A DNA stretch of 64,000 bases from Escherichia coli (GCF_003018255.1 NZ_CP027440.1); one strand, 5' to 3'. Shown: positions 8,318-32,456, counted from the stretch's first letter. Numbers and translations are program-made. Notes: generated from the letters alone by a model not told the origin.

Positions 8318-8833
8318 TTACAGCAAAAGATAACCTTCGTGGCGCAATAACCACTCTTTTCGCTGAACTCCGCCTGCATATCCGGTCATGGTGCCGTTTC
8401 GGCCAATAACCCGATGGCAAGGTACAACAATGCTGATGGGATTCGATCCGTTAGCCGCACCAACGGCACGCGCCGCGCCTGGGCGGCCTAATTGTTCAGC
8501 CAGTTGGCCATAATGCATTACCTGCCCGCAGGGGATAGTGCGCAGTGTTTTCCAGACTTCGCGCTGAAATGGCGTCCCCCCCGTGGCAGTGGGAAGCGTA
8601 TCAATAATGCTAAGATTACCGGCAAAATATTCACGAAGCTTGTCGCTTAAACCACCTGGGTTGGTGGCAGAAATGCGCTCATAGCCTTCTTTGCGATAAT
8701 GGATGTCCAGCAGCTGCACCATGCGTTCGCTGTACTCTTCCCATTCAACCGCCCGCAGGCGAAATTGCTCATCGCAAATCACCCACAGTGGACCCAGTGG
8801 CGTGGCAATTTTTTCTTCAAGTAATCTCAGCAT
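8318..8833 (-). CDS. ogt: O6-alkylguanine-DNA alkyltransferase Ogt
   Basis: 171 aa ORF containing the PCHRV active-site motif; synteny downstream of fnr. Confidence 0.9.
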
Positions 8834-8843
8834 CCGTTCTCTC

Positions 8844-9047
8844 TTAAGACAAACGTGGGTAAATACCCGGACCTATCGGCAGACCGACAAGATACCACGC
8901 CAGCAACATCAGCAGCCATACCACCAAAAAGATAAGCGGATAGGGCAAGACTAACGAATAGTAAGTACCCAGTTTCGCGTCTGGTTTGTCGCAGTCTGAT
9001 AGCATAAAGCGATTTTTTGATTTTTCTGCCTGAAGAAATGAGGGCAA
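8844..9047 (-). CDS. hypothetical small hydrophobic ORF (67 aa) just upstream of ogt; possibly a remnant of the deleted abgT 3' end
   Basis: ORF ends 10 bp before the ogt start; hydrophobic C-terminal half; no clear ribosome-binding site evaluated. Confidence 0.25.
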
Positions 9048-9376
9048 GCCATCACATGGATCGAGGGTGGGATAATTCCAGTCAGCGAAATTTTACCGTA
9101 GGCTATCTGTTATTTGATTCTGTGGCGTGATAGCCGCCAGACACCACTGATCTCGTCACTCATTCCCCAATCCCGGCGAGAATGTGGTTATTTACAGAGC
9201 TAAAAAATGAATAAAAAAATAGAGCCTGTCGACATCCGCCAGACTCTACAGTACACACAGCAGTGCATCCTCGTCTTAAATCCGGCCTGGGGTCCTGGTG
9301 ACCGGTGACAGTGTTATAACGGTTTTACCCATCCGTTGCCAATTTTCTTCAGTGACAGATTTCACGAAAATATAAG

Positions 9377-10192
9377 TTAAATCATTTGCCTTGTGATTGC
9401 ATAATCATGCATCGTTAATCGACGAGTAAATTTACCGGGCGAGTAGCCCGTTCGACGCTTAAACATATTGCCGAACGATTCAGCTGAGGCATAGCCCAGA
9501 CGATGGGCAATTTTGGTCAACGAATATCCATCATCAAGAAGCGTCACTGCAGAAATAACGTGCATTTGCTGAACCCAGTGGCGAAATGTTAATCCCGTCT
9601 CTTTAACAAATAAGCGCATGAGTGTACGGCTACTGACGTTAATTTTATCCGCTAGATTATCCAGTGTTGGCAGATACCCTTGGTTGTTTAGCAAATTCTC
9701 ACAAAGCTGCTGTAGCCGCTCATCATTTGGCCAAGGGAGTTCAAGTGACATTTTCACCCCCATTTTTATTTCCTGAAGTATCAGTGTCTCGAGGGCTGAA
9801 AAACGTAACTGTTGTTTATCTGTGGTACTTTGCGACGGTGGAAGTTGGTTAATTGCAATTAGTAATTCTCTTAACAGGGGTGAAATACCCGTCATGAAGC
9901 AAACTTTTCCCAGCGTTTCACTTTCCGCTTCTGAAACCAGTACGGTTTTTAAAAGTACGTTGCCTGTCGCAACAAACTTATGCGGCATTTGTGGGGGCAG
10001 CCAAAGCGCGCTGCTGGCATGCACTAGCCAGACGCTTTCTCCAGCCCATAGACGAACGACTCCTTCAGCCGGGTAAAGCAACTGGGCATAGAGATGTTTA
10101 TGCCAGGGAACTGTGCCTCCATTCAGATGTTCCGAATCCAGTCCGATAATGTGATGCCCTGGTGATGCTTTGGGTTGCAGTGTGATTGTCAT
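9377..10192 (-). CDS. AraC/XylS-family transcriptional regulator (cupin N-domain plus C-terminal HTH)
   Basis: 271 aa ORF with C-terminal AraC-type HTH (KIAHRLGYASAESFGNMFKRRTGYSPGKF); divergent from the efflux genes. Confidence 0.8.
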   Translation of the reverse strand: MTITLQPKASPGHHIIGLDSEHLNGGTVPWHKHLYAQLLYPAEGVVRLWAGESVWLVHASSALWLPPQMPHKFVATGNVLLKTVLVSEAESETLGKVCFMTGISPLLRELLIAINQLPPSQSTTDKQQLRFSALETLILQEIKMGVKMSLELPWPNDERLQQLCENLLNNQGYLPTLDNLADKINVSSRTLMRLFVKETGLTFRHWVQQMHVISAVTLLDDGYSLTKIAHRLGYASAESFGNMFKRRTGYSPGKFTRRLTMHDYAITRQMI

Positions 10193-10288
10193 TTACAGTA
10201 GGTATTTTGTCAGAAATCATCAAATAAGCCATGTTAAATTTTAAATATGGCGAATGCAAGTTTCCGGATATATACGGTGTAAAGAGTG

Positions 10289-11317
10289 ATGATAATTTCT
10301 AAAAAACAGCTTATTGGGGTAGTAGCGATCGGTATTATTTTGGCTGGCGTTGTCTTTTTTATCTGGTGGGTAAGCAAAGGAAGATTTATACAGACGACGG
10401 ATGATGCTTACATTGGTGGTAATATTACCACGGTGGCAAGTAAAGTTTCTGGTTATATTTCTGCTATAGAGGTGCGTGATAATCAGAGCGTAAAAAAAGG
10501 CGATATTATCCTGCGTCTCGATGATCGGGATTATCGTGCAAATGTCGCCAGGCTTGAGGCAAAAATAAAAAGTAGAAAAGCCAATCTCGAAAGCATTCAA
10601 GCCACTATTACGATGCAGCAGTCGATAATTCAAAGTGCCAGTGAAACATGGCAGGCAGTAAAACATGAGGAGCAAAAGCGCCTGCGAGATACTGAACGTT
10701 ATGAAAAACTCGTACAATCAGCGGCAATATCGCAGCAAATTATTGATAACGCCAGGTTTGACTACCAGCAGGTCGCAGCAAAGGAGCGCAAAGCCGCGAA
10801 CGATTTCCTGGTGGAGAAGCAACGGCTGGCAGTTTTATCTGCTCAGGAAGAAAACGTACGTGCGAGTATCGAAGAAGTTCAGGCCGCTTTGACTCAGGCA
10901 CTACTGGATCTGGAATATACCCTTGTTCGTGCGCCGATTGATGGCATTGTCGCAAACCGCAGCGCCCATACAGGCAGTTGGGTGGAAGGCGGCACATCGT
11001 TAGTTTCACTTGTACCAGTCAGTGAGTTGTGGGTTGATGCAAATTATAAAGAAAACCAAATAGCGGGAATGAAGCCAGGAATGAAGGCTGAGATCCGTGC
11101 TGATATTCTCAAAGGGGAAGTGTTTCACGGTCACATTGAAAGCCTTTCCCCAGCGACAGGAGCCAGTTTCAGCTTGATTCCGATAGAAAATGCCACTGGC
11201 AATTTCACCAAAATTGTTCAGCGTGTCCCGGTACGGATTGCATTTGACGACGCAAAGGAATTAAAGCAACTTCTTCGCCCGGGACTGTCCGTCACCGTCA
11301 GTGTCGATGAGAGATGA
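10289..11317 (+). CDS. HlyD/EmrA-family membrane fusion protein (efflux pump periplasmic adaptor)
   Basis: 342 aa with an N-terminal TM anchor, coiled-coil middle and EmrA-like overall architecture; ATG at 10289 (a GTG at 10286 is an alternative). Confidence 0.8.
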   Translation: MIISKKQLIGVVAIGIILAGVVFFIWWVSKGRFIQTTDDAYIGGNITTVASKVSGYISAIEVRDNQSVKKGDIILRLDDRDYRANVARLEAKIKSRKANLESIQATITMQQSIIQSASETWQAVKHEEQKRLRDTERYEKLVQSAAISQQIIDNARFDYQQVAAKERKAANDFLVEKQRLAVLSAQEENVRASIEEVQAALTQALLDLEYTLVRAPIDGIVANRSAHTGSWVEGGTSLVSLVPVSELWVDANYKENQIAGMKPGMKAEIRADILKGEVFHGHIESLSPATGASFSLIPIENATGNFTKIVQRVPVRIAFDDAKELKQLLRPGLSVTVSVDER

Positions 11318-12828
11318 TGTCTATGCGTAAACATATTGCTTTCGCCAGTATGTGTATGGGATTATTTATTGCTCAGCTTGATATTCAAATTGTATCGTCA
11401 TCCCTAAATGAAATAGGTGGTGGTCTGTCCGCAGGTAAAGACGAAATGGCCTGGCTTCAGACCAGCTATTTAATTGCTGAGATTATTGTTATTCCGCTCT
11501 CTGGGTGGCTGTCACGGGTATTTTCCACTCGTTGGCTTTTTACTCTATCCGCGGGAATATTTACTTTAATGAGTATCGCGTGTGGACTTGCATGGAATAT
11601 TCAGATCATGATTTTGTTTCGTGCTTTACAGGGAGCGGCTGGCGCATCCATGATCCCTTTAGTTTTCACGACGGCGTTTATTTATTACCAGGGTAAAGAG
11701 TTGGGGTCGGCTGCTGCGGTAGTCAGTGCGCTGGCCTCACTGTCACCGACGCTAGGGCCAACTCTGGGGGGCTGGATCACTGATAACCTCGACTGGCGAT
11801 GGCTATTTTATATCAATATATTACCTGGCATATATTTAGTTTTGAGTATTCCTTTTCTGGTTAATTTTGATAAACCTGATCTCTCTTTACTGAAAGTTGC
11901 TGATTATCCGAGTATTATCCTGTTGGCCATGACACTGGGATGTCTGGAATATACCCTTGAAGAAGGAGCGCGCTGGGGATGGCTGGATGATAATACTATT
12001 TTGCTGACATCAGTTCTGGCATTGGTGAGTTTTATTTTATTTGCTGCGCGTACACTTACAATATCCAATCCGATAATGGATCTTCATGCTTTTAAGGATA
12101 AAAATTTCACGCTGGGATGTTTTTTTTCTTTTTCTGGAGGGGTTGGGATATTCTCTACTGTATATTTAATACTTGTGTTTTTGGGGCAGGTTCGCGGATT
12201 AAATGCCGAAGAGATAGGTTTTGCCGTTTGCACAACAGGTATTTTCCAGTTATTTTCTGTTCCCTTTTACTTCTGGTTAAGTAAAAAAATAAATCTGCGA
12301 TGGCTGTTGATGGCGGGGCTGGGTGGATTTGTGTTTTCAATGTATCTTTTTACCCCTATAACCCACGAATGGGGATGGCAGGAGTTACTGTTTCCACAGG
12401 CAATTAGAGGGATTTCGCAGCAGTTTGCGATGGCCCCCATCGTAACATTAACGCTGGGGGGAATTCCAAAGGAACGGCTGAAGTTAGCCTCTGGTGTATT
12501 TAATTTAACACGTAATCTTGGGGGCGCGATTGGTATTGCCCTGTGTGGCTCTATTCTCAATAATCGAACTAATTTTCATTTTTCGAGAATGGGTGAAAAA
12601 ATGGTTTCTGTTCCCCATACGGTGAATGACTTCATTTCCAGAAGTGCTTTGTTTTTTAATCGCAGTGGAAGTGACCAGACATCGGAAATACTGGCTTCAA
12701 CCAAATTATTGAGTCAGTTGATGCTGAGGGAGGCGCAAACTATGGCATTTTCGGATACCTTTCTGCTAATCAGTGGTCTGTTATTTATCGCATTTTTGTT
12801 GGTTCCTGCTATGAATAAATCATCCTGA
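11314..12828 (+). CDS. MFS efflux transporter, DHA2 (EmrB-like, 14-TMS) family
   Basis: 504 aa, highly hydrophobic, start overlaps the membrane-fusion gene stop by 4 bp (operon). Confidence 0.85.
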   Translation: MMSMRKHIAFASMCMGLFIAQLDIQIVSSSLNEIGGGLSAGKDEMAWLQTSYLIAEIIVIPLSGWLSRVFSTRWLFTLSAGIFTLMSIACGLAWNIQIMILFRALQGAAGASMIPLVFTTAFIYYQGKELGSAAAVVSALASLSPTLGPTLGGWITDNLDWRWLFYINILPGIYLVLSIPFLVNFDKPDLSLLKVADYPSIILLAMTLGCLEYTLEEGARWGWLDDNTILLTSVLALVSFILFAARTLTISNPIMDLHAFKDKNFTLGCFFSFSGGVGIFSTVYLILVFLGQVRGLNAEEIGFAVCTTGIFQLFSVPFYFWLSKKINLRWLLMAGLGGFVFSMYLFTPITHEWGWQELLFPQAIRGISQQFAMAPIVTLTLGGIPKERLKLASGVFNLTRNLGGAIGIALCGSILNNRTNFHFSRMGEKMVSVPHTVNDFISRSALFFNRSGSDQTSEILASTKLLSQLMLREAQTMAFSDTFLLISGLLFIAFLLVPAMNKSS

Positions 12829-13022
12829 TCGGAGCCTGTGCTGAATTAAACTCGGGCTAAACTGTTCGATACTGCTAACAGGCTAGTATAAAATGCCCCG
12901 CCTGCGCAGATACTCACAGGTATGAAGTAGAGTATTGTTTCAATCTGTGAAGGGAACGATGCAGTAAGAATGAACAATTAACCCGTCTGAATCACGACGT
13001 GTGAAGGTGCATAGGAGGTTAC

Positions 13023-13586
13023 ATGAACCTTGACGACAAATCGCTGTTTCTTGACGCCATGGAAGATGTCCAGCCGCTGAAACGTGCTACAGATGTCCAC
13101 TGGCATCCAACGCGTAACCAACGTGCGCCGCAGCGTATCGACACGCTGCAACTTGATAATTTCCTCACCACCGGATTTCTCGACATCATCCCGCTAAGTC
13201 AGCCGCTGGAGTTTCGGCGGGAAGGGTTGCAACATGGGGTGCTGGATAAGCTGCGCAGTGGTAAATATCCGCAACAGGCGAGCCTGAATCTTTTGCGCCA
13301 GCCGGTGGAAGAGTGCCGCAAAATGATGTTCAGTTTCATTCAACAAGCCATGGCGGATGGTTTGCGTAACGTGCTGATTATTCATGGTAAAGGGCGGGAT
13401 GATAAATCGCATGCCAATATTGTCCGCAGCTATGTGGCGCGCTGGCTGACCGAATTTGATGATGTTCAGGCATATTGCACCGCGCTACCGCATCATGGCG
13501 GCAGCGGGGCGTGTTACGTCGCACTACGTAAAACGGCGCAGGCGAAGCAAGAAAACTGGGAGCGCCACGCTAAGCGCAGCCGTTGA
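13023..13586 (+). CDS. smrA: Smr-domain DNA endonuclease SmrA (YdaL)
   Basis: 187 aa ORF with a C-terminal Smr domain; synteny before dgcM. Confidence 0.85.
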   Translation: MNLDDKSLFLDAMEDVQPLKRATDVHWHPTRNQRAPQRIDTLQLDNFLTTGFLDIIPLSQPLEFRREGLQHGVLDKLRSGKYPQQASLNLLRQPVEECRKMMFSFIQQAMADGLRNVLIIHGKGRDDKSHANIVRSYVARWLTEFDDVQAYCTALPHHGGSGACYVALRKTAQAKQENWERHAKRSR

Positions 13587-16077: not shown

Positions 16078-16351
16078 CAAAAGCAATTTTCCCGGCTGTC
16101 TGTATACAAAAACGCCGCAAAGTTTGAGCGAAGTCAATAAACTCTCTACCCATTCAGGGCAATATCTCTCTTGCAGGTGAATGCAACGTCAAGCGATGGG
16201 CGTTGCGCTCCATATTGTCTTACTTCCTTTTTTGAATTACTGCATAGCACAATTGATTCGTACGACGCCGACTTTGATGAGTCGGCTTTTTTTTGCCTGT
16301 TATTTGTCAGCGTCTACCCTTTAAGAGTCCACCCAATGACCGGAGGGAAAT

Positions 16352-18056: not shown

Positions 18057-18992
18057 TTATTTCACTTCAACCACATTCAGCCGTAACTCATCCAACTGAT
18101 TTTCATCTTCTTCAGGCTGCCAACCCGCCGGTTGTAGAGGGATCTCTTCGCGATCAAACGCCAGATCACCCCCGTTAACCACTTCAGAACCGTGGGTAAT
18201 ACCTTTGAAATCGAACAGGTTGGTATCGCACAGATGCGACGGCACCACATTCTGCATCGCGCTGAACATCGTCTCGATACGCCCTGGATAACGTTTATCC
18301 CAGTCACGCAACATGTCAGCAATCACCTGACGTTGCAGGTTAGGCTGTGAACCGCACAGGTTGCACGGAATAATCGGGAACGCTTTTGCATCGGCAAAGC
18401 GCTGAATATCTTTCTCGCGGCAGTAGGCCAGCGGGCGAATCACGATATGTTTGCCATCATCGCTCATCAGTTTCGGAGGCATACCTTTCATCTTGCCGCC
18501 GTAGAACATATTTAAGAACAACGTTTGCAGGATATCGTCACGATGGTGACCCAGCGCGATCTTCGTCGCTCCCAGTTCCGTTGCGGTACGATAAAGGATA
18601 CCGCGACGAAGACGAGAACACAGTGAGCAAGTGGTTTTGCCCTCCGGAATCTTCTCTTTCACGATACCGTAAGTGTTCTCTTCCACAATCTTGTACTCAA
18701 CGCCCAGCTTTTCAAGATACTCGGGCAGAACGTGTTCCGGAAAGCCCGGTTGCTTTTGATCGAGGTTAACAGCCACCAGCGAAAAATTGATTGGCGCGCT
18801 TTGCTGCAAATTGCGCAGAATTTCCAGCATGGTATAGCTATCTTTACCCCCGGAGAGGCAAACCATGATGCGATCGCCTTCTTCAATCATATTGAAGTCA
18901 GCAATGGCTTCGCCCACGTTACGACGCAGGCGTTTTTGTAATTTGTTCAGGTTGTATATTTCTTTCTTCGTATTCTTTTGATTTTCTTGCAT
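18057..18992 (-). CDS. ttcA: tRNA 2-thiocytidine(32) synthetase TtcA
   Basis: 311 aa with SGGKDS PP-loop motif and CxxC pairs; its 5' end overlaps the prophage attL. Confidence 0.9.
18943..18957. other. attL core of the Rac-like prophage (TTGTTCAGGTTGTAT), inside the ttcA 5' coding region
   Basis: The same 15-mer recurs at 32764-32778 with diverged but related flanks. Confidence 0.55.
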
Positions 18993-19043
18993 TATTTCAG
19001 TTCTCTGGTACTAAATGGGGCAAATTGGGGGCAAACTTTGCAA

Positions 19044-20279
19044 CTACGATAACCGCGCATTCAACATGGCTACCTGTTCGTCGTTCATGTCATCAATCCA
19101 CATACCGTAAATTTCATACACCATCTGCGCAGTTTCATGCCCCATCTGGCTGGCTATAAACGCCGGGTTCGCTCCTGCCGTCAACAGCCAGCAGGCAAAA
19201 GTATGCCGCGTATGGTACGGATTACGGCGGCGAATACCAGCACGTTTTACTGCTGCATTCCATCTCGCACCCAAACTGCTTACCGAGTAATAAGGTTTCT
19301 GTTTTCCGTTACACACTCTGGGCATGAAAACAAAATGCAGTTTTTGCTTTTCGGTTCTGCCGTACTCCCGATGATAAAAAGTGATTTCGCTTTTGCGATG
19401 ATGCCCGGTCAGTTTGTATTGCTCCTTCAGTGCTTCAAGAGCAGGCTGCAGTAGTGTTACCGTCCGGATCCCCGCATTTGTTTTTGGGGGACCGAACATA
19501 TCAAGTATCGTCAGGTTTCTTCTGACATTCACAACTCCCTTCTCGAAATCCACATCCTCCCACGCCAGAGCAGCCAGTTCCCCGTGACGAAGCCCGGAGT
19601 ATACGGCAAATTTCCACAAGTTCTGGCTCTGTCCTTTTTCACTTTCCATTAATGCATTGAATTCTGTTTTAGATAACGGGTCAGGCTTTATTCTGTTTCT
19701 CTGTAATTTTTTTACTCCTTCAAATGGTTTGGTTGATATAAATCCCGACTGATACGCAAAACGTAACAACGAACAGAGCAGGGCGATATAATTATCAACT
19801 GTGCGCACGGTTCTTCCTTTTTTGTTGGATCTTGGATTATCTAGGTAAAGCGTTTCTCCATGCAGCAGTTCATTCCGGTAGTTTAAGATATCGCTATAAC
19901 GAATATGCGATATCGGGGTACTCTCACAAATTATTATCCTGAGTGTTTTTAATTGTGATTTCGTTTTCTTCATTGTGTTTGTTGTTAACTCTGTTTCTTT
20001 AATTTTTGTCCAGATATCACAAAGCTCCCCGAACGTTTTTATGACCCTCGTTGTCACCATTTTTGCCCCAGTGCTGGACTGGGGAAAACGTCTTAAATAC
20101 TCAAACTCACCGGAATTGATTTCATGAACTATCAACGCTCTTAAATTCCCGGCTTTTTTAATGTTACTGTTAGTAACCTCCCAGCCTTTCAATGTTTCCC
20201 GACATCGTTTTCCTCGAAACATGAACCAGATGCGAATGTATTTACCTCGAATCTCGACACCTGTTGGTAATTTAGACAT
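19044..20279 (-). CDS. intR: Rac prophage tyrosine integrase IntR
   Basis: 411 aa with a C-terminal tyrosine-recombinase catalytic region (HxxR ... Y); immediately inside attL. Confidence 0.9.
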   Translation of the reverse strand: MSKLPTGVEIRGKYIRIWFMFRGKRCRETLKGWEVTNSNIKKAGNLRALIVHEINSGEFEYLRRFPQSSTGAKMVTTRVIKTFGELCDIWTKIKETELTTNTMKKTKSQLKTLRIIICESTPISHIRYSDILNYRNELLHGETLYLDNPRSNKKGRTVRTVDNYIALLCSLLRFAYQSGFISTKPFEGVKKLQRNRIKPDPLSKTEFNALMESEKGQSQNLWKFAVYSGLRHGELAALAWEDVDFEKGVVNVRRNLTILDMFGPPKTNAGIRTVTLLQPALEALKEQYKLTGHHRKSEITFYHREYGRTEKQKLHFVFMPRVCNGKQKPYYSVSSLGARWNAAVKRAGIRRRNPYHTRHTFACWLLTAGANPAFIASQMGHETAQMVYEIYGMWIDDMNDEQVAMLNARLS

Positions 20280-20280
20280 A

Positions 20281-20496
20281 TCATGAGTCTTTGATAAACT
20301 GATTTATCTTTGGATAGTTGTACCAGATAATTCCTCGCTTACTGTCTGGCTTCCCTAAAGGAGATACTCGTTTGAAGTGGAAGCCTTCCACCCAACAGTT
20401 CTGGCGGTATGCTTCAATTTGTCTGGCCCCCAGACCAGTGCGAAGCATCAGGCCGTATTCAACCATCCACTCTTCATTAAAGATTACTTGTGCCAT
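20281..20496 (-). CDS. xisR: excisionase-like protein XisR (YdaQ)
   Basis: Start at [11 protein letters not shown] gives 71 aa; directly upstream of intR. Confidence 0.7.
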
Positions 20497-20595
20497 CGCA
20501 TTACCTCTGGCAGGCGCCAATGTTAGACTTAAATTGACGCCCGATGTTGATTATTAATAATCAGCTATGAAGTTTTAATTTGAATACAATGCAAT

Positions 20596-20796
20596 TCACG
20601 AGGACTGAAGTTTCTCGCAATTAAAATTTATCAGTTTTACTTTCTGCTCTCTGGAAACGCCTGCTTCTTTTTTACCTGAGAGCATTTTTTCGCATTCTGA
20701 TTTAGTTAGTTTATATTTTGAATATCTTGTCCAGTTAGTAGGAGTGCCACCTTCCTTTTCAATAGTGGCGGTAATTTTATACATGAACACCTCCAT
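20596..20796 (-). CDS. rcbA: Rac prophage protein RcbA (YdaC)-like
   Basis: ORF 20596..20856; contains MYKITATIEKEGGTPTNW...; exact start is ambiguous (Met at 20796 or 20784). Confidence 0.5.
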   Translation of the reverse strand: MEVFMYKITATIEKEGGTPTNWTRYSKYKLTKSECEKMLSGKKEAGVSREQKVKLINFNCEKLQSS

Positions 20797-20971
20797 TATT
20801 ATTTCCAGTGGTTCGTTTATTCCATCTTTCGAGTGCTTCTTTTTCACTTCCACCATAACCGGTTCGGGATTCGCATCCGTTACACTTCGCTCGGTAATAT
20901 CCTGAAATGGCTTTCACCGTTACTGATGGACAACCACAAAATGGACATGGTTTAACATTGTCATATCTCAT
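20777..20971 (-). CDS. ralR: restriction alleviation protein RalR (Lar), zinc-finger small protein
   Basis: Start at MRYDNVKPCPFCGCPSV gives 64 aa with two CxxC pairs. Confidence 0.75.
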   Translation of the reverse strand: MRYDNVKPCPFCGCPSVTVKAISGYYRAKCNGCESRTGYGGSEKEALERWNKRTTGNNNGGVHV

Positions 20972-21027
20972 AATTTTTCTCATAAAAAATATTTCAAGTT
21001 GGCGGTGCATTACACCGCCAGGCTGAA

Positions 21028-21843
<816 letters not shown>

Positions 21844-21909
21844 ATTTTATAACCCAGAACGGGCGTCAGAAATGACGCCTTTTTTATTGCAGAAAAGCGA
21901 GAGGTAATT

Positions 21910-22509
21910 ATGCGTAAACTTTATGCCGCCATTTTGTCCGCAGCCATTTGTCTGGCCGTATCCGGTGCGCCTGCATGGGCGTCTGAACATCAGTCCACGC
22001 TGAGCGCGGGGTATCTTCATGCCCGGACGAACGTTCCCGGCAGTGATGATCTGAACGGGATTAACGTGAAATACCGTTATGAGTTTACGGACACACTGGG
22101 GATGGTGACGTCATTCAGCTATGCAGGAGACAAGAATCGTCAGCTGACCCGTTACAGCGATACCCGCTGGCATGAAGATTCCGTTCGTAACCGCTGGTTC
22201 AGCGTAATGGCGGGGCCGTCTGTGCGCGTGAATGAATGGTTCAGCGCGTATGCGATGGCGGGTGTGGCTTACAGCCGTGTGTCGACTTTTTCCGGGGATT
22301 ATATCCGCGTAACTGACAATAAGGGGAAAACGCACGATGTGCTGACCGGAAGTGATGACGGTCGCCACAGCAACACGTCTCTGGCGTGGGGGGCTGGCGT
22401 GCAGTTTAACCCGACCGAATCCGTGGCCATTGATATTGCTTATGAAGGCTCCGGCAGTGGTGACTGGCGCACTGACGGTTTCATCGTGGGTGTCGGTTAT
22501 AAATTCTGA
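21910..22509 (+). CDS. lom: Lom/Ail/OmpX-family outer-membrane beta-barrel protein (prophage Lom)
   Basis: 199 aa with signal peptide, alternating beta-strand pattern and C-terminal GYKF. Confidence 0.85.
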   Translation: MRKLYAAILSAAICLAVSGAPAWASEHQSTLSAGYLHARTNVPGSDDLNGINVKYRYEFTDTLGMVTSFSYAGDKNRQLTRYSDTRWHEDSVRNRWFSVMAGPSVRVNEWFSAYAMAGVAYSRVSTFSGDYIRVTDNKGKTHDVLTGSDDGRHSNTSLAWGAGVQFNPTESVAIDIAYEGSGSGDWRTDGFIVGVGYKF

Positions 22510-22573
22510 TTAGCCAGGTAACACAGTGTTATGACAGCCCGCCGGTTCAGGCGGGCTTTTTTGTGGGGTGAAT

Positions 22574-25500
22574 ATGGCAGTAAAGATTTCAGGTGTACTG
22601 AAAGACGGTGCAGGTAAACCGGTACAGAACTGTACAATCCAGCTGAAAGCAAAACGTAACAGCACCACGGTGGTGGTGAACACGGTGGCCTCAGAAAATC
22701 CGGATGAAGCCGGGCGTTACAGCATGGACGTTGAGTACGGTCAGTACAGCGTTATTCTGTTGGTGGAAGGATTCCCGCCGTCACATGCCGGGACCATCAC
22801 CGTGTATGAAGATTCCCGACCCGGTACGCTGAATGATTTTCTCGGTGCCATGACGGAGGATGATGCCCGTCCGGAGGCTCTGCGCCGTTTTGAACTGATG
22901 GTGGAAGAGGTGGCGCGTAACGCGTCCGCGGTGGCACAGAACACGGCAGCCGCGAAGAAATCAGCCAGCGATGCCAGCACATCAGCCCGTGAGGCGGCAA
23001 CCCATGCGACTGATGCTGCAGATTCAGCACGTGCAGCCAGCACGTCAGCCGGACAGGCCGCTTCGTCGGCTCAGTCAGCGTCTTCCAGCGCAGGAACGGC
23101 ATCAACAAAGGCCACTGAAGCCTCAAAAAGTGCTGCCGCTGCAGAGTCCTCAAAAAGCGCGGCGGCTACCAGTGCCGGTGCGGCGAAAACGTCAGAAACG
23201 AATGCGGCAGCGTCACAACAATCAGCAGCCACTTCTGCATCCACCGCGACCACGAAAGCGTCAGAAGCTGCCACCTCAGCCCGGGATGCGTCGGCCTCAA
23301 AAGAGGCAGCGAAATCATCAGAAACGAACGCATCATCAAGTGCCAGTAGTGCAGCTTCCTCGGCAACGGCGGCAGGAAATTCCGCGAAGGCCGCAAAAAC
23401 GTCTGAGACGAATGCAGATAACAGCGCACAGGCGGCAGCAGACTCACAAACTGCATCAGCAAACTCCGCGACAGCAGCCAAAAAATCAGAAACCAACGCG
23501 AAAAATAGCGAGGCAGCAGCAAAGAGCAGCGAAACCAACGCTAAAGCCAGCGAAACTAATGCTAAATCCAGTGAAACAAACGCGGCGAAATCTGCGGCGG
23601 ACGCACTTAATTATCGCAACCAGGCGCAAGTAATTGTTGGCGATAATATCGGTCTTGGTGAAGTTGCCATGACCTGCACTGATATCTCTGTTGAGCCATC
23701 AGGTTATATTGGATTTGTCAGGATTTACATCTCAGCGAAAGGTTATCCATCAGTAGCGTCTAGTGCCGGTGATAATCTTATTTCTGGTTATATAGTTAGA
23801 TCAGAAGTGTCAACAAAAAGATATTCCGGTCTATTTGTTGGTTCAGATACAAAATCATTGTATTCGTACATTTACAGCCAAAGTTCTGGCCCGCAATGGA
23901 TACGTCATACCCGCAGAGATGAATTAAGCCGCTTTGGTCAAAATGAATCAACAACTCGTATGTATGGTCCAACTGGTGATCGTTTCTTTGAAATCCATAC
24001 TAACGGGAGTTGGGGAGTTTATGATTCTTCTTCTGGACAATGGTCTCCGTTAGGTTTAGCCCAGGGCGGTACTGGTGGAAGAACTATCGAGCAAGCACGT
24101 GCGAACTTGCGGGTAATGTATGAGCAAAAAGCTGGCCTTGCTAATACTGACCTAAACACCCTTACCGGTGAATATTCTGGTTTCTATCAACAACCAACGA
24201 GCGCTTACGCAACAGAAGAATTAAATTACCCAATCGGTCTGGCGGGCGCTTTAATAGTGCTCCAAACGAGAGCCAACACTGCTTCTTCCTGCGTTCAGGT
24301 GTACTACCCTTATAATAATCCGGGAATTACTTATAGACGAATATATGAAGGAGGAAGCGGTACCTGGTCTGAATGGAAGAGAGATGTATCAACAGAAAGG
24401 GTTGAAGAGGGAAAAGAAACAACTTACGTATATTCTACGTATTCTTCAGGCGCACCACGCTTACAGGTTTCCAAATCTGGTTTGTGGGGTTGTCATAATG
24501 GCACTGGCTGGTTGCCATTAGCTGTTGGGCAAGGAGGTACAGGTGCGACAACAGTAGAAGATGCGCGAAACAACTTAAGTCTTGGCGAAAGTAGCGCAGT
24601 TAAATTTAAAAACCTTACTTTAACCGAAGCGCTCGACACGACATTAGGACTGCTTACAAAAACAGGACGAGACTGGAACACGCAGCATACTGATAACATT
24701 AATAAATTTATACCAATTGCAGGCAGTACAAACGGCCCGGCAGGTTCTATGGTTCTTGGCGGCATTCATGTTCAATTTAGTAAAAATTATGCTGTGCAGT
24801 TCGGAGGCCGCAATTCCGGTTTTTGGGGAAGAACAATTGAAAATGGAACGACGCAGGAATGGAAGAAATTACTAACAGTAGACGATCTCAATTCATCTAC
24901 CGATCTTGCTGTCAGGTCATTAACCACATCTAACCCGGTAAAATCTGGCGGAGGGCGAATTGATGTCCTTGGAAGCACGTCAGACTATAGCAAAATGGAT
25001 TGCTTTGTACGTGGGTTTGATAGCACCGGTAATTCTCTCGCGTGGGCGTTGGGTTCATCAGTCGGCGTAAGTAAGATGCTGTCGCTAAAAAATTTCTTTA
25101 GCGGAGCTGAGATACTGTTAAATGGTAATGACGGCGCGGTTCAACTCAAAACAGGTGCTGTTAACGGGGCTAAAGCGCAGGCGCTCACTATCAACAAGGA
25201 TGAGGTTAACTCAACTGTTGATTTAACTCTTACAAAACAAACAGGGACTGGAAATCGTTTTGTTTTACAGAACTTAGGTAATACAGAACTATCATTTGCC
25301 GCAAAAGTATGGGGATCAAGTGATCGACAAAACGTTTTTGAGGTTGGAACGTCTGCTGCGTATCTGTTTTATGCGCAAAAAACGTCAGCAGGCCAGTTGT
25401 TTGATGTAAATGGCGCTATTAATTGCACAACGCTGAATCAGTCATCAGACCGCGACCTTAAAGACGATATTCTCGTTATCAGCGACGCGACGAAAGCAAT

Positions 25501-25879
25501 CCGTAAAATGAACGGATACACCTACACGCTCAGGGAAAACGGGATGCCTTATGCTGGCGTTATTGCACAGGAAGTAATGGAGGCGATACCAGAAGCTGTG
25601 GGATCGTTTACTCATTACGGTGAAGAGTTGCAGGGACCAACGGTTGACGGCAATGAATTACGTGAAGAAACACGTTATCTGAATGTTGACTACGCCGCCG
25701 TGACGGGGTTACTTGTTCAGGTCGCCCGTGAAACAGATGGTCGCGTTACCGCGCTGGAAGAGGAAAACATAACGCTACGTAAAAATCTGGCAACAGCAGG
25801 CACCCGGATCAGCACTCTGGAAAATCAGGTAAGCGAACTGGTTGCACTTGTCGGGCAGTTAACAGGAAGCGAACATTGA
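22574..25879 (+). CDS. stf: side tail fibre protein (lambda Stf-like N-terminus, Ala/Ser-rich repeat shaft, C-terminal endosialidase-type intramolecular chaperone / peptidase S74-like domain)
   Basis: Start MAVKISGVLKDGAGKPVQNC resembles the lambda Stf N-terminus; long AAxxSxTxA repeat region; C-terminal SDRDLKDD ... coiled-coil tail typical of self-cleaving fibre chaperone domains. Confidence 0.8.
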   Translation: MAVKISGVLKDGAGKPVQNCTIQLKAKRNSTTVVVNTVASENPDEAGRYSMDVEYGQYSVILLVEGFPPSHAGTITVYEDSRPGTLNDFLGAMTEDDARPEALRRFELMVEEVARNASAVAQNTAAAKKSASDASTSAREAATHATDAADSARAASTSAGQAASSAQSASSSAGTASTKATEASKSAAAAESSKSAAATSAGAAKTSETNAAASQQSAATSASTATTKASEAATSARDASASKEAAKSSETNASSSASSAASSATAAGNSAKAAKTSETNADNSAQAAADSQTASANSATAAKKSETNAKNSEAAAKSSETNAKASETNAKSSETNAAKSAADALNYRNQAQVIVGDNIGLGEVAMTCTDISVEPSGYIGFVRIYISAKGYPSVASSAGDNLISGYIVRSEVSTKRYSGLFVGSDTKSLYSYIYSQSSGPQWIRHTRRDELSRFGQNESTTRMYGPTGDRFFEIHTNGSWGVYDSSSGQWSPLGLAQGGTGGRTIEQARANLRVMYEQKAGLANTDLNTLTGEYSGFYQQPTSAYATEELNYPIGLAGALIVLQTRANTASSCVQVYYPYNNPGITYRRIYEGGSGTWSEWKRDVSTERVEEGKETTYVYSTYSSGAPRLQVSKSGLWGCHNGTGWLPLAVGQGGTGATTVEDARNNLSLGESSAVKFKNLTLTEALDTTLGLLTKTGRDWNTQHTDNINKFIPIAGSTNGPAGSMVLGGIHVQFSKNYAVQFGGRNSGFWGRTIENGTTQEWKKLLTVDDLNSSTDLAVRSLTTSNPVKSGGGRIDVLGSTSDYSKMDCFVRGFDSTGNSLAWALGSSVGVSKMLSLKNFFSGAEILLNGNDGAVQLKTGAVNGAKAQALTINKDEVNSTVDLTLTKQTGTGNRFVLQNLGNTELSFAAKVWGSSDRQNVFEVGTSAAYLFYAQKTSAGQLFDVNGAINCTTLNQSSDRDLKDDILVISDATKAIRKMNGYTYTLRENGMPYAGVIAQEVMEAIPEAVGSFTHYGEELQGPTVDGNELREETRYLNVDYAAVTGLLVQVARETDGRVTALEEENITLRKNLATAGTRISTLENQVSELVALVGQLTGSEH

Positions 25880-26086
25880 TATCCTTCAAGCCCTGAAGGA
25901 GGCTGTTCCTGGTACGTTCAGACTGTTGTTGAGCTGGAAATCGCAACGGAGGAAGAAACTTCGTTGCTGGAAGTCTGGAAAAAGTATCGGGTGTTGCTGA
26001 ACCGTGTTGATACATCAACTGCACCTGATGTTGATTGGCCAGCAGCACCGAAGTGTAATTCATTAGAACTCATCACCTGTGAATAA
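25880..26086 (+). pseudogene. orphan 3' remnant of a tail-fibre-assembly (tfa) gene
   Basis: In frame with stf immediately after its stop, no start codon; encodes ...[29 protein letters not shown]..., a Tfa-type C-terminal motif by recollection. Confidence 0.45.
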
Positions 26087-26687
26087 TATCTGTTTTTGAG
26101 TAAGTTAGTAATAATCACTTAAATGTGTTATGAGTTTGTTGAGGCGTGATTTGCAATAGGATAGAGAGTACGATTATGGATTGAGAATAAGAAAGCGCCA
26201 TGAAAGAGTTTCATGGCGAGTACATAAACGTACAAAATATGATGAAAGTAGAGTGGCATAAGCCACTATGTTAACTTATAGCAATAGGGAAGATAAGTAA
26301 ATAATATTTCTTGAGTATAGTGTAAGTCGTTCATTGTAAAGCGTTAATGTTATCTATATTGTTTATCTTAAAATAAGGTGTATAAACCAAACTTTTGAGC
26401 TAAAAGTTTAAAGAGTATTAGTGCAAAAATAATGTTTAATAAGATAATCAATTTGCTTTGTATCTTCATTTCGAAAGATTGCTAAGTAACGTTAATTACC
26501 AAAACGATAGATCAGAATTATCTTAGAGTCAATGACTTTAGGTTTGTTTATAATGTAAATATTTTCTATTTGTTATAAGTTTTCTTAATATAGTCACCCA
26601 TGCAACTTGTTCCGTGTGGAGATTAAAGGTTAAAATTTAATGCGAAGATGGAATTATATTATATTTGTTATAATTAATTTAACCTTA

Positions 26688-26770
26688 ACATCGTTGCTGG
26701 CGGCATGGAAGAAATATCGGGTCTTGCTGATGTCGTGTTGGCACTTCCTTAGTGCCGGATATCGAGTGGC
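26688..26770 (+). pseudogene. second, frameshifted tfa-like C-terminal remnant
   Basis: Encodes ...[10 protein letters not shown] then, after a +1 shift, RVGTSLVPDIEWPAAPIG; a degenerate direct repeat of 25955-26060. Confidence 0.3.
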
Positions 26771-26987
26771 CAGCTGCACCTATAGGGTAAAAATATAGTT
26801 CTATATGGGAGCGCTATTTTTACAATATAAATGCTGAACGGAAGAATCTAACCAGTTACAAAAAACATAGTTATGTAATCCAGTTGCCTGGGCATGCGTG
26901 TGATGTTGATAGCTATTACTGTATCTTCCGTTCACTTACCTTATTGTGAACAGTTATATATAATTTGATCTGCTCTTATTCAGCCTG

Positions 26988-28190
26988 CTAGGCTGCTGTA
27001 AATCTTCGATACTTTCTTAACATAAAGATCATGATTAGAATAATTGAAAGTAAGTAAACAATCCAAATGGTGATATTTCGTTCAATTAAAAAGCTACCAA
27101 TTCCGCCGATCACTGAAGGAATCACCAGAGAAGCGGCCCCCATTAACGCAGATGTGGCACCCAGACTGGTACGTTGGCTGGACATAGTTAGGTAAGTATA
27201 AAGTGATTCGAACATACCTCCGGCAAACATCAAAACAATGAAGAATAATATAAAAACATTGACATGATGAACGAATATTATTAGCGGAGTGCACAATACG
27301 ATAAATGAAGCAATGAGCTTCAGCCATAAACTCAAAATTTGTGGTGCAGACCGCTTCTTAAGTAGTTTACCTGATAGTGCTGCTCCCAGCAGAAGGAATC
27401 CTCCAATAATTGATGAGATAACACCAAATTGCGTAGATGAGTATCCATACTTAACCATCAAAATAAATGGGGAAGCTGTGACATAACAATAAATTAGAGA
27501 GAATGAAAGTCCAAGAGAAAGGCAAGGTAGATAAAATCTTGGTTGCTTACTTATCTCTTTGTACGTAAGAAATGATGATTTTAGTGAATATGTAATCCGT
27601 TTTTTATGACTGAGTGTTTCAGGGAAGTTAAAATAGACATACGTTAATGTTACAACAGAATATCCTAATATCATTAGAAAAATTGCACGCCATCCCCATA
27701 CATCATTAATTATTCCTCCCAGCAGTGGAGAAGCAATAGGCACGACACCTTCAATAGTTATGATAATAGCGTACAGTGTAGCAGCCACTGAACCGCGTGT
27801 TACATCACGAACGGCACTAATTGCTGTAACCAGAGTTATTGATATAGAAAGCCCCTGTATGATGCGTATTGTAAGAAACGTACCCAATCCGGTCGAGAGT
27901 GTGAGGCAATATGTTGTCACACAATAAATAATAGCACCTGAAAGCATAATTCTTCGACGACCAATAGAATCAGATAATGGGCCAAAAATTAGCTGTCCAA
28001 AACCTATACAAAGGGTATAAACCATGATAGACAATTGCATGGACGGGATGTTTTGTCTAAATTCTTTTGCGATGTCAGGAATTGAAGGCAAATAAGTGTC
28101 CACACCTAGAATGCCCATAATAGTCAGCAGCGATAGGCCAATAGTAAAGAAAAGTATATTCTTTCTGTGAATAACAACTTGTGATTTCAT
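26988..28190 (-). CDS. MFS transporter (12-TMS, Bcr/CflA-like drug:H+ antiporter family), AT-rich foreign gene
   Basis: 400 aa, highly hydrophobic, with the MFS signature GPLSDSIGRRR after TM2; GC content visibly far below the flanking DNA. Confidence 0.8.
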   Translation of the reverse strand: MKSQVVIHRKNILFFTIGLSLLTIMGILGVDTYLPSIPDIAKEFRQNIPSMQLSIMVYTLCIGFGQLIFGPLSDSIGRRRIMLSGAIIYCVTTYCLTLSTGLGTFLTIRIIQGLSISITLVTAISAVRDVTRGSVAATLYAIIITIEGVVPIASPLLGGIINDVWGWRAIFLMILGYSVVTLTYVYFNFPETLSHKKRITYSLKSSFLTYKEISKQPRFYLPCLSLGLSFSLIYCYVTASPFILMVKYGYSSTQFGVISSIIGGFLLLGAALSGKLLKKRSAPQILSLWLKLIASFIVLCTPLIIFVHHVNVFILFFIVLMFAGGMFESLYTYLTMSSQRTSLGATSALMGAASLVIPSVIGGIGSFLIERNITIWIVYLLSIILIMIFMLRKYRRFTAA

Positions 28191-28952
28191 TATTTATCAC
28201 CATGAATAAATTAAAAGAATGAAAAAAACTCCATTTAAATGGAAGGAGGTGGATAATTATCGTGTAGGCAATACAACAGAGTTGAAAAGAACTGTCAAAC
28301 TTTTAACTCAAAAAAGTGAGATGTGAATCACAGACATAAAAATCATCTTTTTCAGCCCTATGGTTCAGTTAAATTTGATTGTTATCGTACGAAGGTTTGA
28401 ACGTGTGTGTGCGTATGCGGTATTTTTTCTTGCGAGTGCCGGAGTTATGAGAGCGTTGTATTAACCTTCATAATCTGACCTATTCAATTGATTCCAGTAC
28501 ACCAATGGGTATTTTGGTGTTATGGTATGTGACTCCAAATAAAATGGAGCGTGAACTGATAGTTGTGCGAACAAAAGTCGGACTAGAAACCGCTCGGGTA
28601 CAGTGGCGAATTGGAGTTGGCGACCCAAACTGACCTAGGAACAATCGTTGCAGATCGGACGATTAATTTCATCAGAAATTCCTCGCTAAAAGGTGGCTAT
28701 CACTGTGATGTTAACGTATCTAATTTGTACAAGAAATTTCTGCGGGGGAAAATGAAACCGCAGACTCGTTGTATGCAAAAACGTGCTGCGGCTAACTGGT
28801 GAACTTTCGATAGTGCGGGTATTGAATGATTTCTAGGCGTTATCGATTTTACGTATTTTTTGCATGATAGAATTCGTACCTCCTCCCAACGACCTTCCAT
28901 GGCTTTCCGGACTTCTGTAGGCCGGCGGACGATGCTGTCCTCGGATGTTGTG

Positions 28953-29810
28953 CTAATTGGGTGATAACAGATCCTGTGTATGGGAGTTTCCCTTTGTGCG
29001 TGCGTTGATGCTGGTAACGGTAAACGTCATGATGAACACGACCGCGAATAAGACGACAATCGTCGGAGCTGGTGCGCTGTCGATAAAAAAGGACAACCAG
29101 ACACCAGTCATTGACACTATTACCGATATGCCAGTCGCCAGTAGGAGCGCAATATGAAAGCGTTGTGTCAGGAGTACCGCAATGGCGCCAGGCGCTATGA
29201 GCAGAGAAATGGAGAGAATGATACCTACCGCTTTCAGCGTCGCCACAATGGTCAGAGAGACCATGCACAGCAGCCCATAATGCAGCCATCTCGTATGCAA
29301 ACCGCTTACCTGCGCCTGTTGATAATCAAAGCTGAACAGCAAAAAATCCCGCCATTTTACGCTAATAACAAGTGTAACCAGCCCGGCAATAATCATCGTC
29401 TGGATTATATCGCCGATGGTTATCCCGAGCATGTCGCCGAAAAGAATATGGTCAAGATGTACGTCTGGTTTGACTGCAATATACAAGATCAGACCTGCGG
29501 CAAACATGCCAGAAAAAACAATCCCCATCACTGTATCTTGCTTGATTCGGCTGTTGTCTTTCAGGTATCCCGTCGCCACCGCGCAGAATACTCCGGCGAC
29601 GAATGCCCCTGTAGCTAAAGGTAACCCCAGAATCCAGGCAAGCACGATGCCAGGAAAAACTGCATGACTCATCGCGTCACCCATCAGTGCCCAACCTTTC
29701 AGGACCAGAAAGACCGACAGCAGCGCACAGGGTATGGAAACTACCAGTGAAATCAGCAGTGCGTGACTCATAAAGGTGAACTGCAGTGGCTCCAGTAATA
29801 ATGCCATCAT
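28953..29810 (-). CDS. sitD: Mn/Fe ABC transporter permease SitD
   Basis: 285 aa integral membrane permease; last gene of the four-gene operon; overlaps sitC by 4 bp. Confidence 0.9.
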   Translation of the reverse strand: MMALLLEPLQFTFMSHALLISLVVSIPCALLSVFLVLKGWALMGDAMSHAVFPGIVLAWILGLPLATGAFVAGVFCAVATGYLKDNSRIKQDTVMGIVFSGMFAAGLILYIAVKPDVHLDHILFGDMLGITIGDIIQTMIIAGLVTLVISVKWRDFLLFSFDYQQAQVSGLHTRWLHYGLLCMVSLTIVATLKAVGIILSISLLIAPGAIAVLLTQRFHIALLLATGISVIVSMTGVWLSFFIDSAPAPTIVVLFAVVFIMTFTVTSINARTKGNSHTQDLLSPN

Positions 29811-30664
29811 GAGCGATCCTCCAGCGCCTTATGCGCACGCCGACGATTTGCCAAAAGCCCATGGGTGGGCGCAAAGACAAATGCTAAAAGAAACAGCAGT
29901 GTCTGCGCCACCACGATGATTCCACCTGTCGCGCCGTCCAGAAAGTAACTGACCCACGAGCCGAGGAAACTGGTTACACTGCCAATAGTTACAGCAATCA
30001 TGAGCAGGCGGGGAAAACGATCGGTTAACAACCATGCTGTTGCACCGGGAGTCACCACCAGACAGATCACCAGAAAGGCACCAACCGTTTGCAGCGCCGC
30101 AACGGTCGAAACCGACAGCAGGGTGAAGAAGAGGAGTTTTAATCTGCCCGGATGCAATCCAATAGCACGGGCGTGATTCTCGTCGAAAAAGGTCACCATA
30201 AGATCTTTCCATTTGAAAAAAAGCACGATGATCGAGAGAATGCCAATGATAGTGAGTTGCAGGATATCCGCCGGATCGATTGCCAGAATATTGCCCAGGA
30301 CGATGGTCTGAATGTTCACAGATGTCGGGTTCAATGACACCATAAACAGCCCCAGGCCAAAAAAGGATGAGAAGATCAGGCCGATGATGGCATCTTCTTT
30401 TAAGCGGGTGCGTTGGTTAAGAAACAGCATGCTGCCCGCAGCCAGTCCGCCGGAAAAGAAGGCTCCCAGAGAAAACGGAAGCCCCAGCATATATGCTCCC
30501 GCAACACCCGGGACAATAGAGTGCGACAACGCATCGCCAATCAGCGACCAGCCTTTTAGCATCAGATAGCATGACAGGAAAGCGCAGAGACCGCCGACCA
30601 TCGCCGAGACCCACATCGCATTGAGCATATATTCATAGCTGAAGGGTTCCAGTAGCACGTTCAT
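29807..30664 (-). CDS. sitC: Mn/Fe ABC transporter permease SitC
   Basis: 285 aa permease paralogous to SitD; 4-bp overlaps on both sides. Confidence 0.9.
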
Positions 30665-31488
30665 CTTTCTTCCCTCTGCACCGCTGACGGTCGATGAGCC
30701 ACAAAAGGGCGTTCATCGTCAGTAATAATGCTTTCTTCCGAGCCGTTAAGTGTGACATGGCGCAGTACGCCGCTAAAAGCCAGCTCCAGGTTCTCGGCTG
30801 TAAAAGTGGTGTCTGTCGGCCCGCTTGCCAGGACGGTGCCTTTGACCATGACCGTATAATCGCAAAATGTCGTGACGGATCCGAGATTGTGTGTTGAGAC
30901 AAGCATCGTTTTGCCTTCCGCGCGTAACTCCCTCAACAGGCTGATGATTTTGGCTTCGGTTTTCACATCAACGCCAGTAAAAGGTTCATCCAGCAGGATC
31001 ACATCACCCTGCTGTGCAATCGCTCTCGCCAGAAAGACGCGTTTCTTTTGTCCACCGGAAAGCTCGCCGATTTGTCGATGGCGAAAATTCACCATATCGA
31101 CACGTTCCAGCGCATCGGTGACAATTTGACGATCCCTCTTTTTGGCGATACGCAACATACCCATATGCCCATAGCGGCCCATCATCACCACATCTTCCAC
31201 CAGTACAGGAAATGACCAGTCAACCTCTTCTGACTGAGGGACGTAGGCAACCAGGTTTTTCTGTAACGCCTGTCGCGTGGGAATACCCAGAACAGATATC
31301 TTTCCGCTGGTCAGACGCACAAATCCCATAATCGCTTTAAACAACGTCGATTTTCCGGAACCGTTTACCCCAACCAGAGCGGCAATAGATCCACTTGGTA
31401 CTGTGAAGGATGCATCGCGCAGTGCTGTGTGCCCGTTACGCCAGGTGACAGTAACATCATTAACGACAATGCCTGCAGATTGCATCAT
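30661..31488 (-). CDS. sitB: Mn/Fe ABC transporter ATP-binding protein SitB
   Basis: 275 aa with Walker [13 protein letters not shown] signature LSGGQKKR and Walker B ILLDEP. Confidence 0.9.
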
Positions 31489-32402: not shown

Positions 32403-32434
32403 AATTTAGTACCTATAGTGAGCAAAATTAGAAC

Positions 32435-32456
32435 AAACATAGCAACGGCTATGTTT
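32435..32456. promoter_or_regulatory. MntR box (perfect palindrome AAACATAGC-N4-GCTATGTTT) in the sitA promoter
   Basis: Perfect 9-bp inverted repeat 33 bp upstream of the sitA start; matches the MntR operator consensus as I recall it. Confidence 0.65.

Follow-up and report, generated by a model that had tools for sequence, protein, structure and literature searches.

What do three genes between ogt and smrA do in an Escherichia coli chromosome (GCF_003018255.1, NZ_CP027440.1), and how did they come to lie beside the remnants of the abg genes that occupy this interval in strain K-12? We analysed a 64,000-nucleotide (nt) stretch of this genome, hereafter the window, in which the three genes form an inserted cassette encoding an AraC-family regulator, a periplasmic adaptor and a DHA2 transporter of the major facilitator superfamily (MFS). 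We consider it probable that the cassette is a self-contained, horizontally acquired efflux unit: a TolC-dependent, ligand-regulated pump of the EmrAB type. This reading builds on the gene identities, intact frames, purifying selection, conserved catalytic and assembly residues, the unity of the triad in several genomic contexts and the boundaries of the insertion. The cassette and its parts are laid out as follows.

9413–13012, no strand: inserted cassette of 3600 nt, comprising all window DNA absent from K-12 between mcaS and smrA
9377–10192, minus strand: AraC/XylS-family regulator, 271 amino acids (aa), from the open reading frame (ORF) listing and Pfam
10193–10288, no strand: divergent control region between regulator and pump operon, 93–96 bp
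10289–11317, plus strand: EmrA-type periplasmic adaptor, 342 aa, from family scans and phmmer
11314–12828, plus strand: DHA2 14-helix MFS transporter (predicted proton antiporter), 504 aa, from TIGR00711
12829–13012, no strand: 3' non-coding cassette end, now the region upstream of smrA, from alignments with K-12, Citrobacter koseri and Salmonella

A transporter and an adaptor of the EmrAB type

The transporter belongs to the DHA2 group, scoring 397.5 bits with TIGR00711 against a cut-off of 230.2, with residues 9–496 covering model positions 3–480 of 485. It is collinear over its whole length with the 14-helix EmrB and is predicted from this alignment to share that topology; a crude hydropathy scan picks out 12 strongly hydrophobic segments, and the amphipathic helices at about 358–380 and 395–416 are placed by alignment only. 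The hallmark DHA2 motifs, an acidic residue in transmembrane helix (TM) 1, Arg/Gln in TM4 and GP..GG in TM5, are represented by D23, R103, Q106, G148-P149 and G152-G153, all invariant with EmrB and EmrY. In EmrB, residues D29, R109 and Q112 serve coupling, and I120, P121, N403 and R406 form the cytoplasmic gate (PMC13139468). These positions correspond to D23, R103, Q106, I114-P115, N397 and R400 of the cassette transporter, and each of them is invariant in the alignment. The EmrB segment between helices 13 and 14 forms a periplasmic helix bundle that is required for assembly (PMC13139468), and the cassette transporter has a segment of ~64 residues at the same position.

The adaptor matches EmrA (8zar_A) in a phmmer search at 9.6e-43, its residues 6–341 aligning to EmrA 20–346, and is 31% identical to K-12 EmrA. 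It falls within the efflux adaptor superfamily (TIGR01730, RND_mfp / HlyD; 134.4 bits, cut-off 94.9) and has a single N-terminal membrane helix at residues 8–26. The conserved loop of the EmrA beta-barrel is kept (FSLIPIENATGNFTKIVQR in the adaptor vs FSLLPAQNATGNWIKVVQR in EmrA), and the adaptor residues L296/I297 and I309/V310 align with the hydrophobic ring residues L302/L303 and V315/V316 of EmrA. Judged by sequence, the protein fits the structural definition of an EmrA-type adaptor given in PMC13139468. We read it as probably EmrA-like in its working mode, though not a member of the EmrA family by NCBI thresholds. Its longest ORF runs to 343 aa from 10286; RefSeq places the start at the ATG at 10289. 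The transporter start overlaps the adaptor stop (ATGA), which suggests that the pump genes are translationally coupled.

Kinship with the K-12 pumps is distant. The transporter shares 28% of its residues with EmrB and 26% with EmrY, and it scores 212.3 bits with the EmrB model NF000391, whose cut-off is 925; its closest non-enterobacterial relatives are in Paraburkholderia, at 51–52% identity. Such low identities, and scores with the EmrA and EmrB models that fall far short of the cut-offs, rule out orthology of the pump to EmrAB or EmrKY; the two proteins are distant paralogues of EmrA and EmrB.

A divergently encoded, probably local regulator

The regulator has the double helix-turn-helix of its family (Pfam HTH_18, 1.4e-21, residues 180–258, plus two HTH_AraC matches) and an N-terminal cupin domain (AraC_binding, 5.8e-8; Cupin_2, 1.3e-6; residues 25–88). 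It is closest to K-12 NimR, with which it aligns at full length (32% identity over 234 aa, E=5e-34). NimR is a local regulator with a single target, and it binds the DNA that separates nimR from a divergently transcribed MFS exporter gene (PMC5934670). Orthology to NimR is ruled out by the 32% identity, by the presence of K-12's own nimR-nimT elsewhere and by the different exporter class of the target. More distant regulator relatives in Acinetobacter and Oxalobacteraceae also lie divergently beside MFS genes. By analogy, the cassette regulator is expected to respond to a ligand and to act locally, as a switch at the ~95-bp intergenic region. This control region has promoter-like hexamers on both strands and a block, ATCATCA.A.AAG.CATG.TAA.TTTT, that is conserved with the Kluyvera/Citrobacter-type cassette described below; repeat searches of it for regulator binding sites gave only short AT-rich palindromes, none of them convincing.

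A first-pass annotation of the window had proposed an AraC-family regulator beside an EmrA-like and DHA2 gene pair, distinct from any characterised K-12 system. Both parts of that proposal agree with our results: the family scans identify all three genes (HTH_18 and TIGR00711 scores above), and the identities of 28% to EmrB, 26% to EmrY and 31% to EmrA speak for a separate system.

The cassette and the abg deletion are separate events

The same annotation took the cassette to stand in place of the abg locus. To follow the boundaries, the flanking features are needed.

8318–8833, minus strand: ogt, from the ORF listing
8844–8989, minus strand: abgT 3' stub directly upstream of ogt, identical to the K-12 abgT 3' end and diverging after ~8989
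8995–9203, plus strand: abgR 3' stub (~210 nt), a decayed LysR-regulator remnant, aligned to the K-12/L007 abgR 3' end
9211–9306, minus strand: intact gene for the small RNA (sRNA) McaS (IsrA), Rfam RF00115, 112.8 bits against a gathering score of 42, full-length match 1–96
13023–13586, plus strand: smrA (DNA endonuclease), the conserved right flank, from RefSeq annotation of relatives, with homologues across Enterobacteriaceae

The annotated record of K-12 MG1655 lists abgT, abgB, abgA, abgR and mcaS between ogt and smrA and none of the three cassette genes, as stated in the first-pass annotation. Its inventory of the window's own interval was correct for the three genes and overlooked the abgT stub, the abgR stub and the intact McaS gene; these sit in a 544-nt stretch between ogt and the regulator ORF that lacks a long ORF yet houses all three. 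The abgT stub is 146 nt long, 98–99% identical to strains that keep the abg genes, and annotated by RefSeq in relatives as a partial AbgT pseudogene. It meets the abgR stub at a deletion junction at ~8989/8990. What removed abg was thus an internal deletion, which joined the two stubs and left mcaS intact. Homology to K-12 runs from the end of abgR through mcaS to 9412 and is found again from 13013, a point 10 nt short of the smrA start; between these points the window has 3600 nt where K-12 has 111 unrelated nt. About 420 nt, including intact mcaS and ~100 nt of native spacer, separate the abg deletion junction from the cassette. A separate insertion placed the pump cassette between mcaS and smrA, beside the abg genes. 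The idea that it replaced the abg locus fails on these boundaries, and on 314 genomes that hold intact abg genes plus the cassette. Its description as an accessory module did hold: among 5426 complete E. coli genomes, 1457 carry it.

Which state is ancestral can be approached through outgroups. In C. koseri and Salmonella, ogt directly adjoins smrA, with C. koseri retaining an abgT stub and an mcaS homologue between them. DNA upstream of smrA in both outgroups matches the 111 nt of K-12. It does not match the corresponding DNA of the window, whose 12829–13012 segment has no homology to smrA-upstream DNA of K-12, C. koseri or Salmonella save in the last ~28 nt. A loss of the cassette from K-12 was favoured at first, since 36 nt at the 3' end of the regulator ORF have a match in K-12. 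The ORF crosses the insertion junction and takes these 36 nt (tail MHDYAITRQMI) from native spacer, and regulator orthologues elsewhere are 260–262 aa long, end at about the junction and lack the 11-residue tail. The tailless orthologues, with the homology of the 111 nt to C. koseri and Salmonella, rule out that loss and, for the same reasons, K-12 is ancestral with respect to the cassette, the 3.6-kb insertion having displaced 111 nt of native DNA. By the outgroup comparison, abg/mcaS and the cassette are both additions to an ancestral ogt-smrA adjacency. Because C. koseri keeps the abgT stub and the mcaS homologue, the comparison suggests that abg and mcaS were at the site before Escherichia and C. 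koseri split and that abg was lost more than once. The cassette has a GC content of 44.2%, and its GC content at third codon positions, 0.40–0.42 vs 0.49–0.59 in neighbouring genes, fits a foreign origin.

Both ends of the interval carry further features. The abgT stub is highly conserved and is also kept in C. koseri, and it may serve as an ogt promoter region. In cassette-bearing strains, smrA follows the transporter gene on the same strand at a distance of 194 nt, and the 111 nt of ancestral upstream DNA, conserved in K-12, C. koseri and Salmonella, were lost with the insertion. One promoter-like site was found in the 3' non-coding cassette end, at 12866–12894. Transcription of smrA may have been rewired in these strains.

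Three haplotypes segregate in E. coli

Carriers amount to about a quarter of the complete genomes and include sequence type 131 (ST131) and avian pathogenic E. coli (APEC); 1316 of them have the cassette at full length. The abgTBA core is present in 4227 genomes, an intact abgR beside the regulator gene (by a bridging query) in 314, exemplified by L007 with abg plus cassette, and a diverged abgR stub in 1137. Three haplotypes emerge: abg only, as in K-12 (~3900 genomes); cassette with the abg deletion, as in the window (~1140); and both (314). In all stub-bearing genomes the abgR stub is ~75% identical to intact abgR, and the abgT stub and flanking genes are 97–99% identical. Escherichia strain E69, which GTDB places separately, is ~92% identical over the region and has the identical abg-deletion junction and the cassette.

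Divergence within the region is uneven. Between the window and E69, synonymous divergence (pS) is 0.19–0.47 in the flanking genes, 0.08 in the regulator and 0.18 in the adaptor; within E. coli, divergence of the cassette is about half that of its flanks. Because it is less diverged than the flanks, we take the cassette to be younger than the lineages that carry it and to have been exchanged among them; homologous recombination of the flanks is the simplest route. Its history would then comprise insertion between mcaS and smrA in an Escherichia lineage and spread by recombination, with the loss of abg a separate deletion on the same haplotype. As a working idea, a deeply diverged Escherichia would be the source of the block of abgR stub, mcaS and cassette, and recombination would have carried it into E. 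coli at a later time; the 314 genomes with both loci would then stem from crossovers within mcaS. The complete E. coli genomes were searched for an intact abgR of the diverged type, and none was found. A scan of contigs, which required exact peptide words, gave 7 loci and is not readable as absence from other Escherichia species.

An exchange of the abg genes for the efflux module in a single step is very unlikely. It would account for the abg-deletion junction and cassette always occurring together on the strongly diverged haplotype (abgR stub ~75% identical, ~1137 genomes) and for their joint presence in the divergent E69, and the pS data allow that the block entered E. coli as one recombined piece. 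Yet the junctions at ~8990 and 9412/9413 lie apart, with intact mcaS and ~100 nt of native spacer between them; the 314 genomes pair intact abg with the cassette; and C. koseri independently lost abg without gaining it. A more far-reaching combination, quite improbable as a whole, would make the abgR stub-mcaS-cassette block an introgression from a deeply diverged Escherichia that gave phylogroups rich in extraintestinal pathogenic E. coli a third EmrAB-type pump, switched by a ligand and dedicated to a compound specific to their niche; the same event would have replaced the native smrA promoter region and coupled smrA expression to the pump operon, and the RefSeq pseudogene label discussed below would have let pangenome and resistome surveys overlook the pump.

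The triad travels as a unit outside E. coli

Orthologues of the transporter, 505 aa long and 82% identical, occur in Kluyvera, Citrobacter, Salmonella salamae, Hafnia, Pluralibacter and others. The Kluyvera/Citrobacter-type triad is a 3565-bp unit that is 99% identical in at least 3 different chromosomal neighbourhoods (L008 6018–9582; L011, L015); it ends in palindromes resembling repetitive extragenic palindromic (REP) elements (GTCCGCT..CTGGCAC..AGCGGAC) and lacks a recombinase gene. Two further neighbourhoods contain more distant copies, whose regulators are 63–76% identical. Counting the E. coli site, regulator, adaptor and transporter occur together in at least 6 genomic contexts across Enterobacteriaceae. 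Because the genes stay together while their neighbours change, we regard the triad as one functional unit.

One distant copy (L037 8767–14763) adjoins genes with LigAB-type dioxygenase, PrpF, RraA-like and PIG-L domains. From these Pfam families the neighbours can be read as an aromatic ring-cleavage cluster, and an unsupported hint at aromatic-acid substrates is possible.

The three-gene cassette contains no mobility genes, its E. coli junctions have no repeats, and searches for plasmid carriage gave no true plasmid matches, which together rule out a plasmid, transposon or other mobile element.

An intact transporter gene labelled as frameshifted

None of the three ORFs is interrupted, either in the window or in the four other E. 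coli genomes compared, and pN/pS stands at ~0.1–0.3. RefSeq nevertheless flags the transporter as 'frameshifted' in 5/5 records checked (L001, L003, L004, L007, L005). L005 is a deleted copy; the four others are full-length (L001 6015–7529, L003/L004 9875–11389, L007 14161–15675), show no indel relative to the window and have an uninterrupted ORF of 504 codons; WP_213847369.1 is an example of a protein entry with this full length. The window's own ORF aligns without gaps, at 82% identity, to the 505-aa orthologues. Absence of indels, intact codons and the gapless alignment rule out a genuine frameshift. In the four full-length copies the RefSeq pseudogene ends at an out-of-frame TAA (window 12767–12769), and it is at that TAA that the 484-aa and 488-aa (WP_162471458.1) proteins of Shigella flexneri, ending "...AFSVPFC", terminate by way of a 1-nt deletion. 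Aligning an intact E. coli gene to the 484/488-aa Shigella reference would therefore demand a 'frameshift', and we infer that the flag reflects reference bias towards the Shigella-type protein. Protein-based pangenome, resistome and genome-wide association analyses may drop the transporter because of it.

A proposed pump and its alternatives

By homology to EmrAB-TolC, the DHA2 transporter would exchange protons for a substrate that is small and probably either hydrophobic or amphipathic, and a membrane-anchored hexamer of the EmrA-type adaptor would form a periplasmic channel above it. That channel would dock tip-to-tip with chromosomal TolC, so that substrate leaves the cell in one step. The AraC-family, NimR-like cupin regulator would bind the ~95-bp intergenic region and switch the two-gene operon upon ligand. 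TolC is the expected partner because the cassette, like emrAB, encodes no outer-membrane factor. In Paraburkholderia, homologues (52% identity) lie in operons of adaptor, transporter and outer-membrane factor; since those operons include the third component, the family probably works as tripartite pumps.

Several observations weigh against this proposal. With no outer-membrane factor gene in the cassette, the use of TolC is an assumption, and our literature search found no relevant literature or experimental record on the cassette. The adaptor scores 266.7 bits with TIGR00998 (EmrA/EmrK), whose cut-off is 390.8, and 205.4 with NF011715 (EmrA), whose cut-off is 563. It also lacks the C-terminal coil and helix of EmrA (residues 347–390), ending two residues past the position of EmrA 346; in EmrA, the coil and terminal helix at 375–390 form a three-stranded coiled coil (PMC13139468). 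In the window itself, transporter residue 287 is Leu (codon at 12172–12174), where the four other E. coli copies and all five compared homologues have Pro, the Pro being shared by the Kluyvera/Citrobacter and Paraburkholderia homologues, EmrB and EmrY; L132S is a second substitution private to the window. The pump may be impaired in this strain by P287L. Elsewhere the module is eroding in some lineages. Partial copies make up 141 of the 1457, and individual lesions include an adaptor-transporter deletion in the O2:H1 strain HM670 (L005 8850–9479), a 328-aa nonsense form of the transporter with 1555 database members, a form with an in-frame 116-aa deletion, an E69 frameshift that splits the transporter into ORFs of 287 and 236 aa (L020 6980–8502), and the truncated S. 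flexneri form with its 1-nt deletion.

Taken furthest, the two private substitutions and these independent inactivations would make the cassette a decaying relic that no longer gives efflux here, perhaps generally, and persists since deletion is slow. This is unlikely when 1316 of 1457 carriers are full-length, all three ORFs are intact in 5/5 E. coli copies at a pN/pS of 0.1–0.3, and the functional residues are conserved. A different objection concerns what is exported. The regulator's place among NimR-like local regulators that are each dedicated to one exporter, the enrichment of the cassette in particular lineages such as ST131 and APEC, and the one distant triad copy beside a putative aromatic ring-cleavage cluster would suit a metabolite that is endogenous or specific to the niche (such as a signal, a fatty acid/bile-type compound or an aromatic acid) and that the regulator senses, in place of a multidrug role. 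The neighbourhoods differ in every context, however, and offer no conserved metabolic partner, and characterised EmrAB-type pumps handle xenobiotics such as nalidixic acid and carbonyl cyanide m-chlorophenylhydrazone (CCCP) (PMC13139468); we give export of such a metabolite only a small chance. The ligand-regulated EmrAB-type efflux unit is the reading that we retain.

Other features of the window

To the left of the interval, the ORF listing gives the order ynaI, ynaJ, uspE, fnr and then ogt; beyond smrA it gives dgcM, zntB and dbpA. The FnrS sRNA gene lies between zntB and dbpA (16173–16290; Rfam, 134.8 bits), an ordinary arrangement that is the same in K-12. Adjoining ttcA, a 13.8-kb segment (18985–32764) is absent from the closest complete genome and matches a degraded prophage remnant with sitABCD (iron/manganese uptake), an MFS efflux gene of the Bcr/CflA family and tail-fibre fragments. 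In the closest relative, the phenylacetate (paa) cluster is cut down to a paaX fragment and paaY (L034 14335–15266); window positions ~44180–45110 are collinear with that segment at 99% identity, and the paa deletion is probably common to both.

Significance for E. coli efflux

If active, the cassette would give about one E. coli in four, ST131, APEC and Shigella lineages among them, a third tripartite pump of the EmrAB type. Pump lists based on K-12 would overlook it: one study of adherent-invasive E. coli LF82 sought only homologues of K-12 pumps and reported none among strain-specific genes. The three segregating haplotypes also offer a clean case for studying recombination between Escherichia lineages. 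We regard the overall significance as modest, resting on prevalence in clinically important lineages, an annotation artefact that hides the gene and an unusual haplotype history.

Comparison with known systems

EmrAB-TolC of K-12 (8ZAL/8ZAR; PMC13139468) is the nearest model. It shares with the cassette the adaptor-then-transporter layout, the 14 helices of DHA2, the coupling and gate residues, the segment between helices 13 and 14 and an operon without an outer-membrane gene. The cassette differs in its 28% (transporter) and 31% (adaptor) identity, with scores far under the equivalog cut-offs, and in an adaptor without EmrA 347–390 and ~15 N-terminal cytoplasmic residues. Its regulator is a divergent AraC/cupin protein, whereas emrAB has the upstream MarR-type MprA (EmrR), and its locus is accessory where emrAB is core.

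EmrKY, also of K-12, is likewise an adaptor and DHA2 pair of the same family. It is a close paralogue of EmrAB; the cassette branches well outside, its transporter 26% identical to EmrY. EvgAS controls emrKY, and evgA adjoins the pair in K-12.

The regulatory side resembles NimR-NimT (YeaM-YeaN) of K-12, which shares the cupin HxH...Q motif, both helix-turn-helix units and the divergence of regulator from MFS exporter across a ~95-bp spacer. NimT, in contrast, is a 12-helix exporter without an adaptor, and at 32% identity the ligand and target of NimR (2-nitroimidazole resistance) are not transferable to the cassette regulator. The Paraburkholderia operons have an EmrA-type adaptor directly upstream of the transporter, as the cassette does, but bring their own NodT-type outer-membrane lipoprotein and MarR-type regulators and have no AraC regulator. 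Against these systems, the cassette stands as a new, unstudied case of a well-known type, the EmrAB-type tripartite MFS pump with a local regulator.

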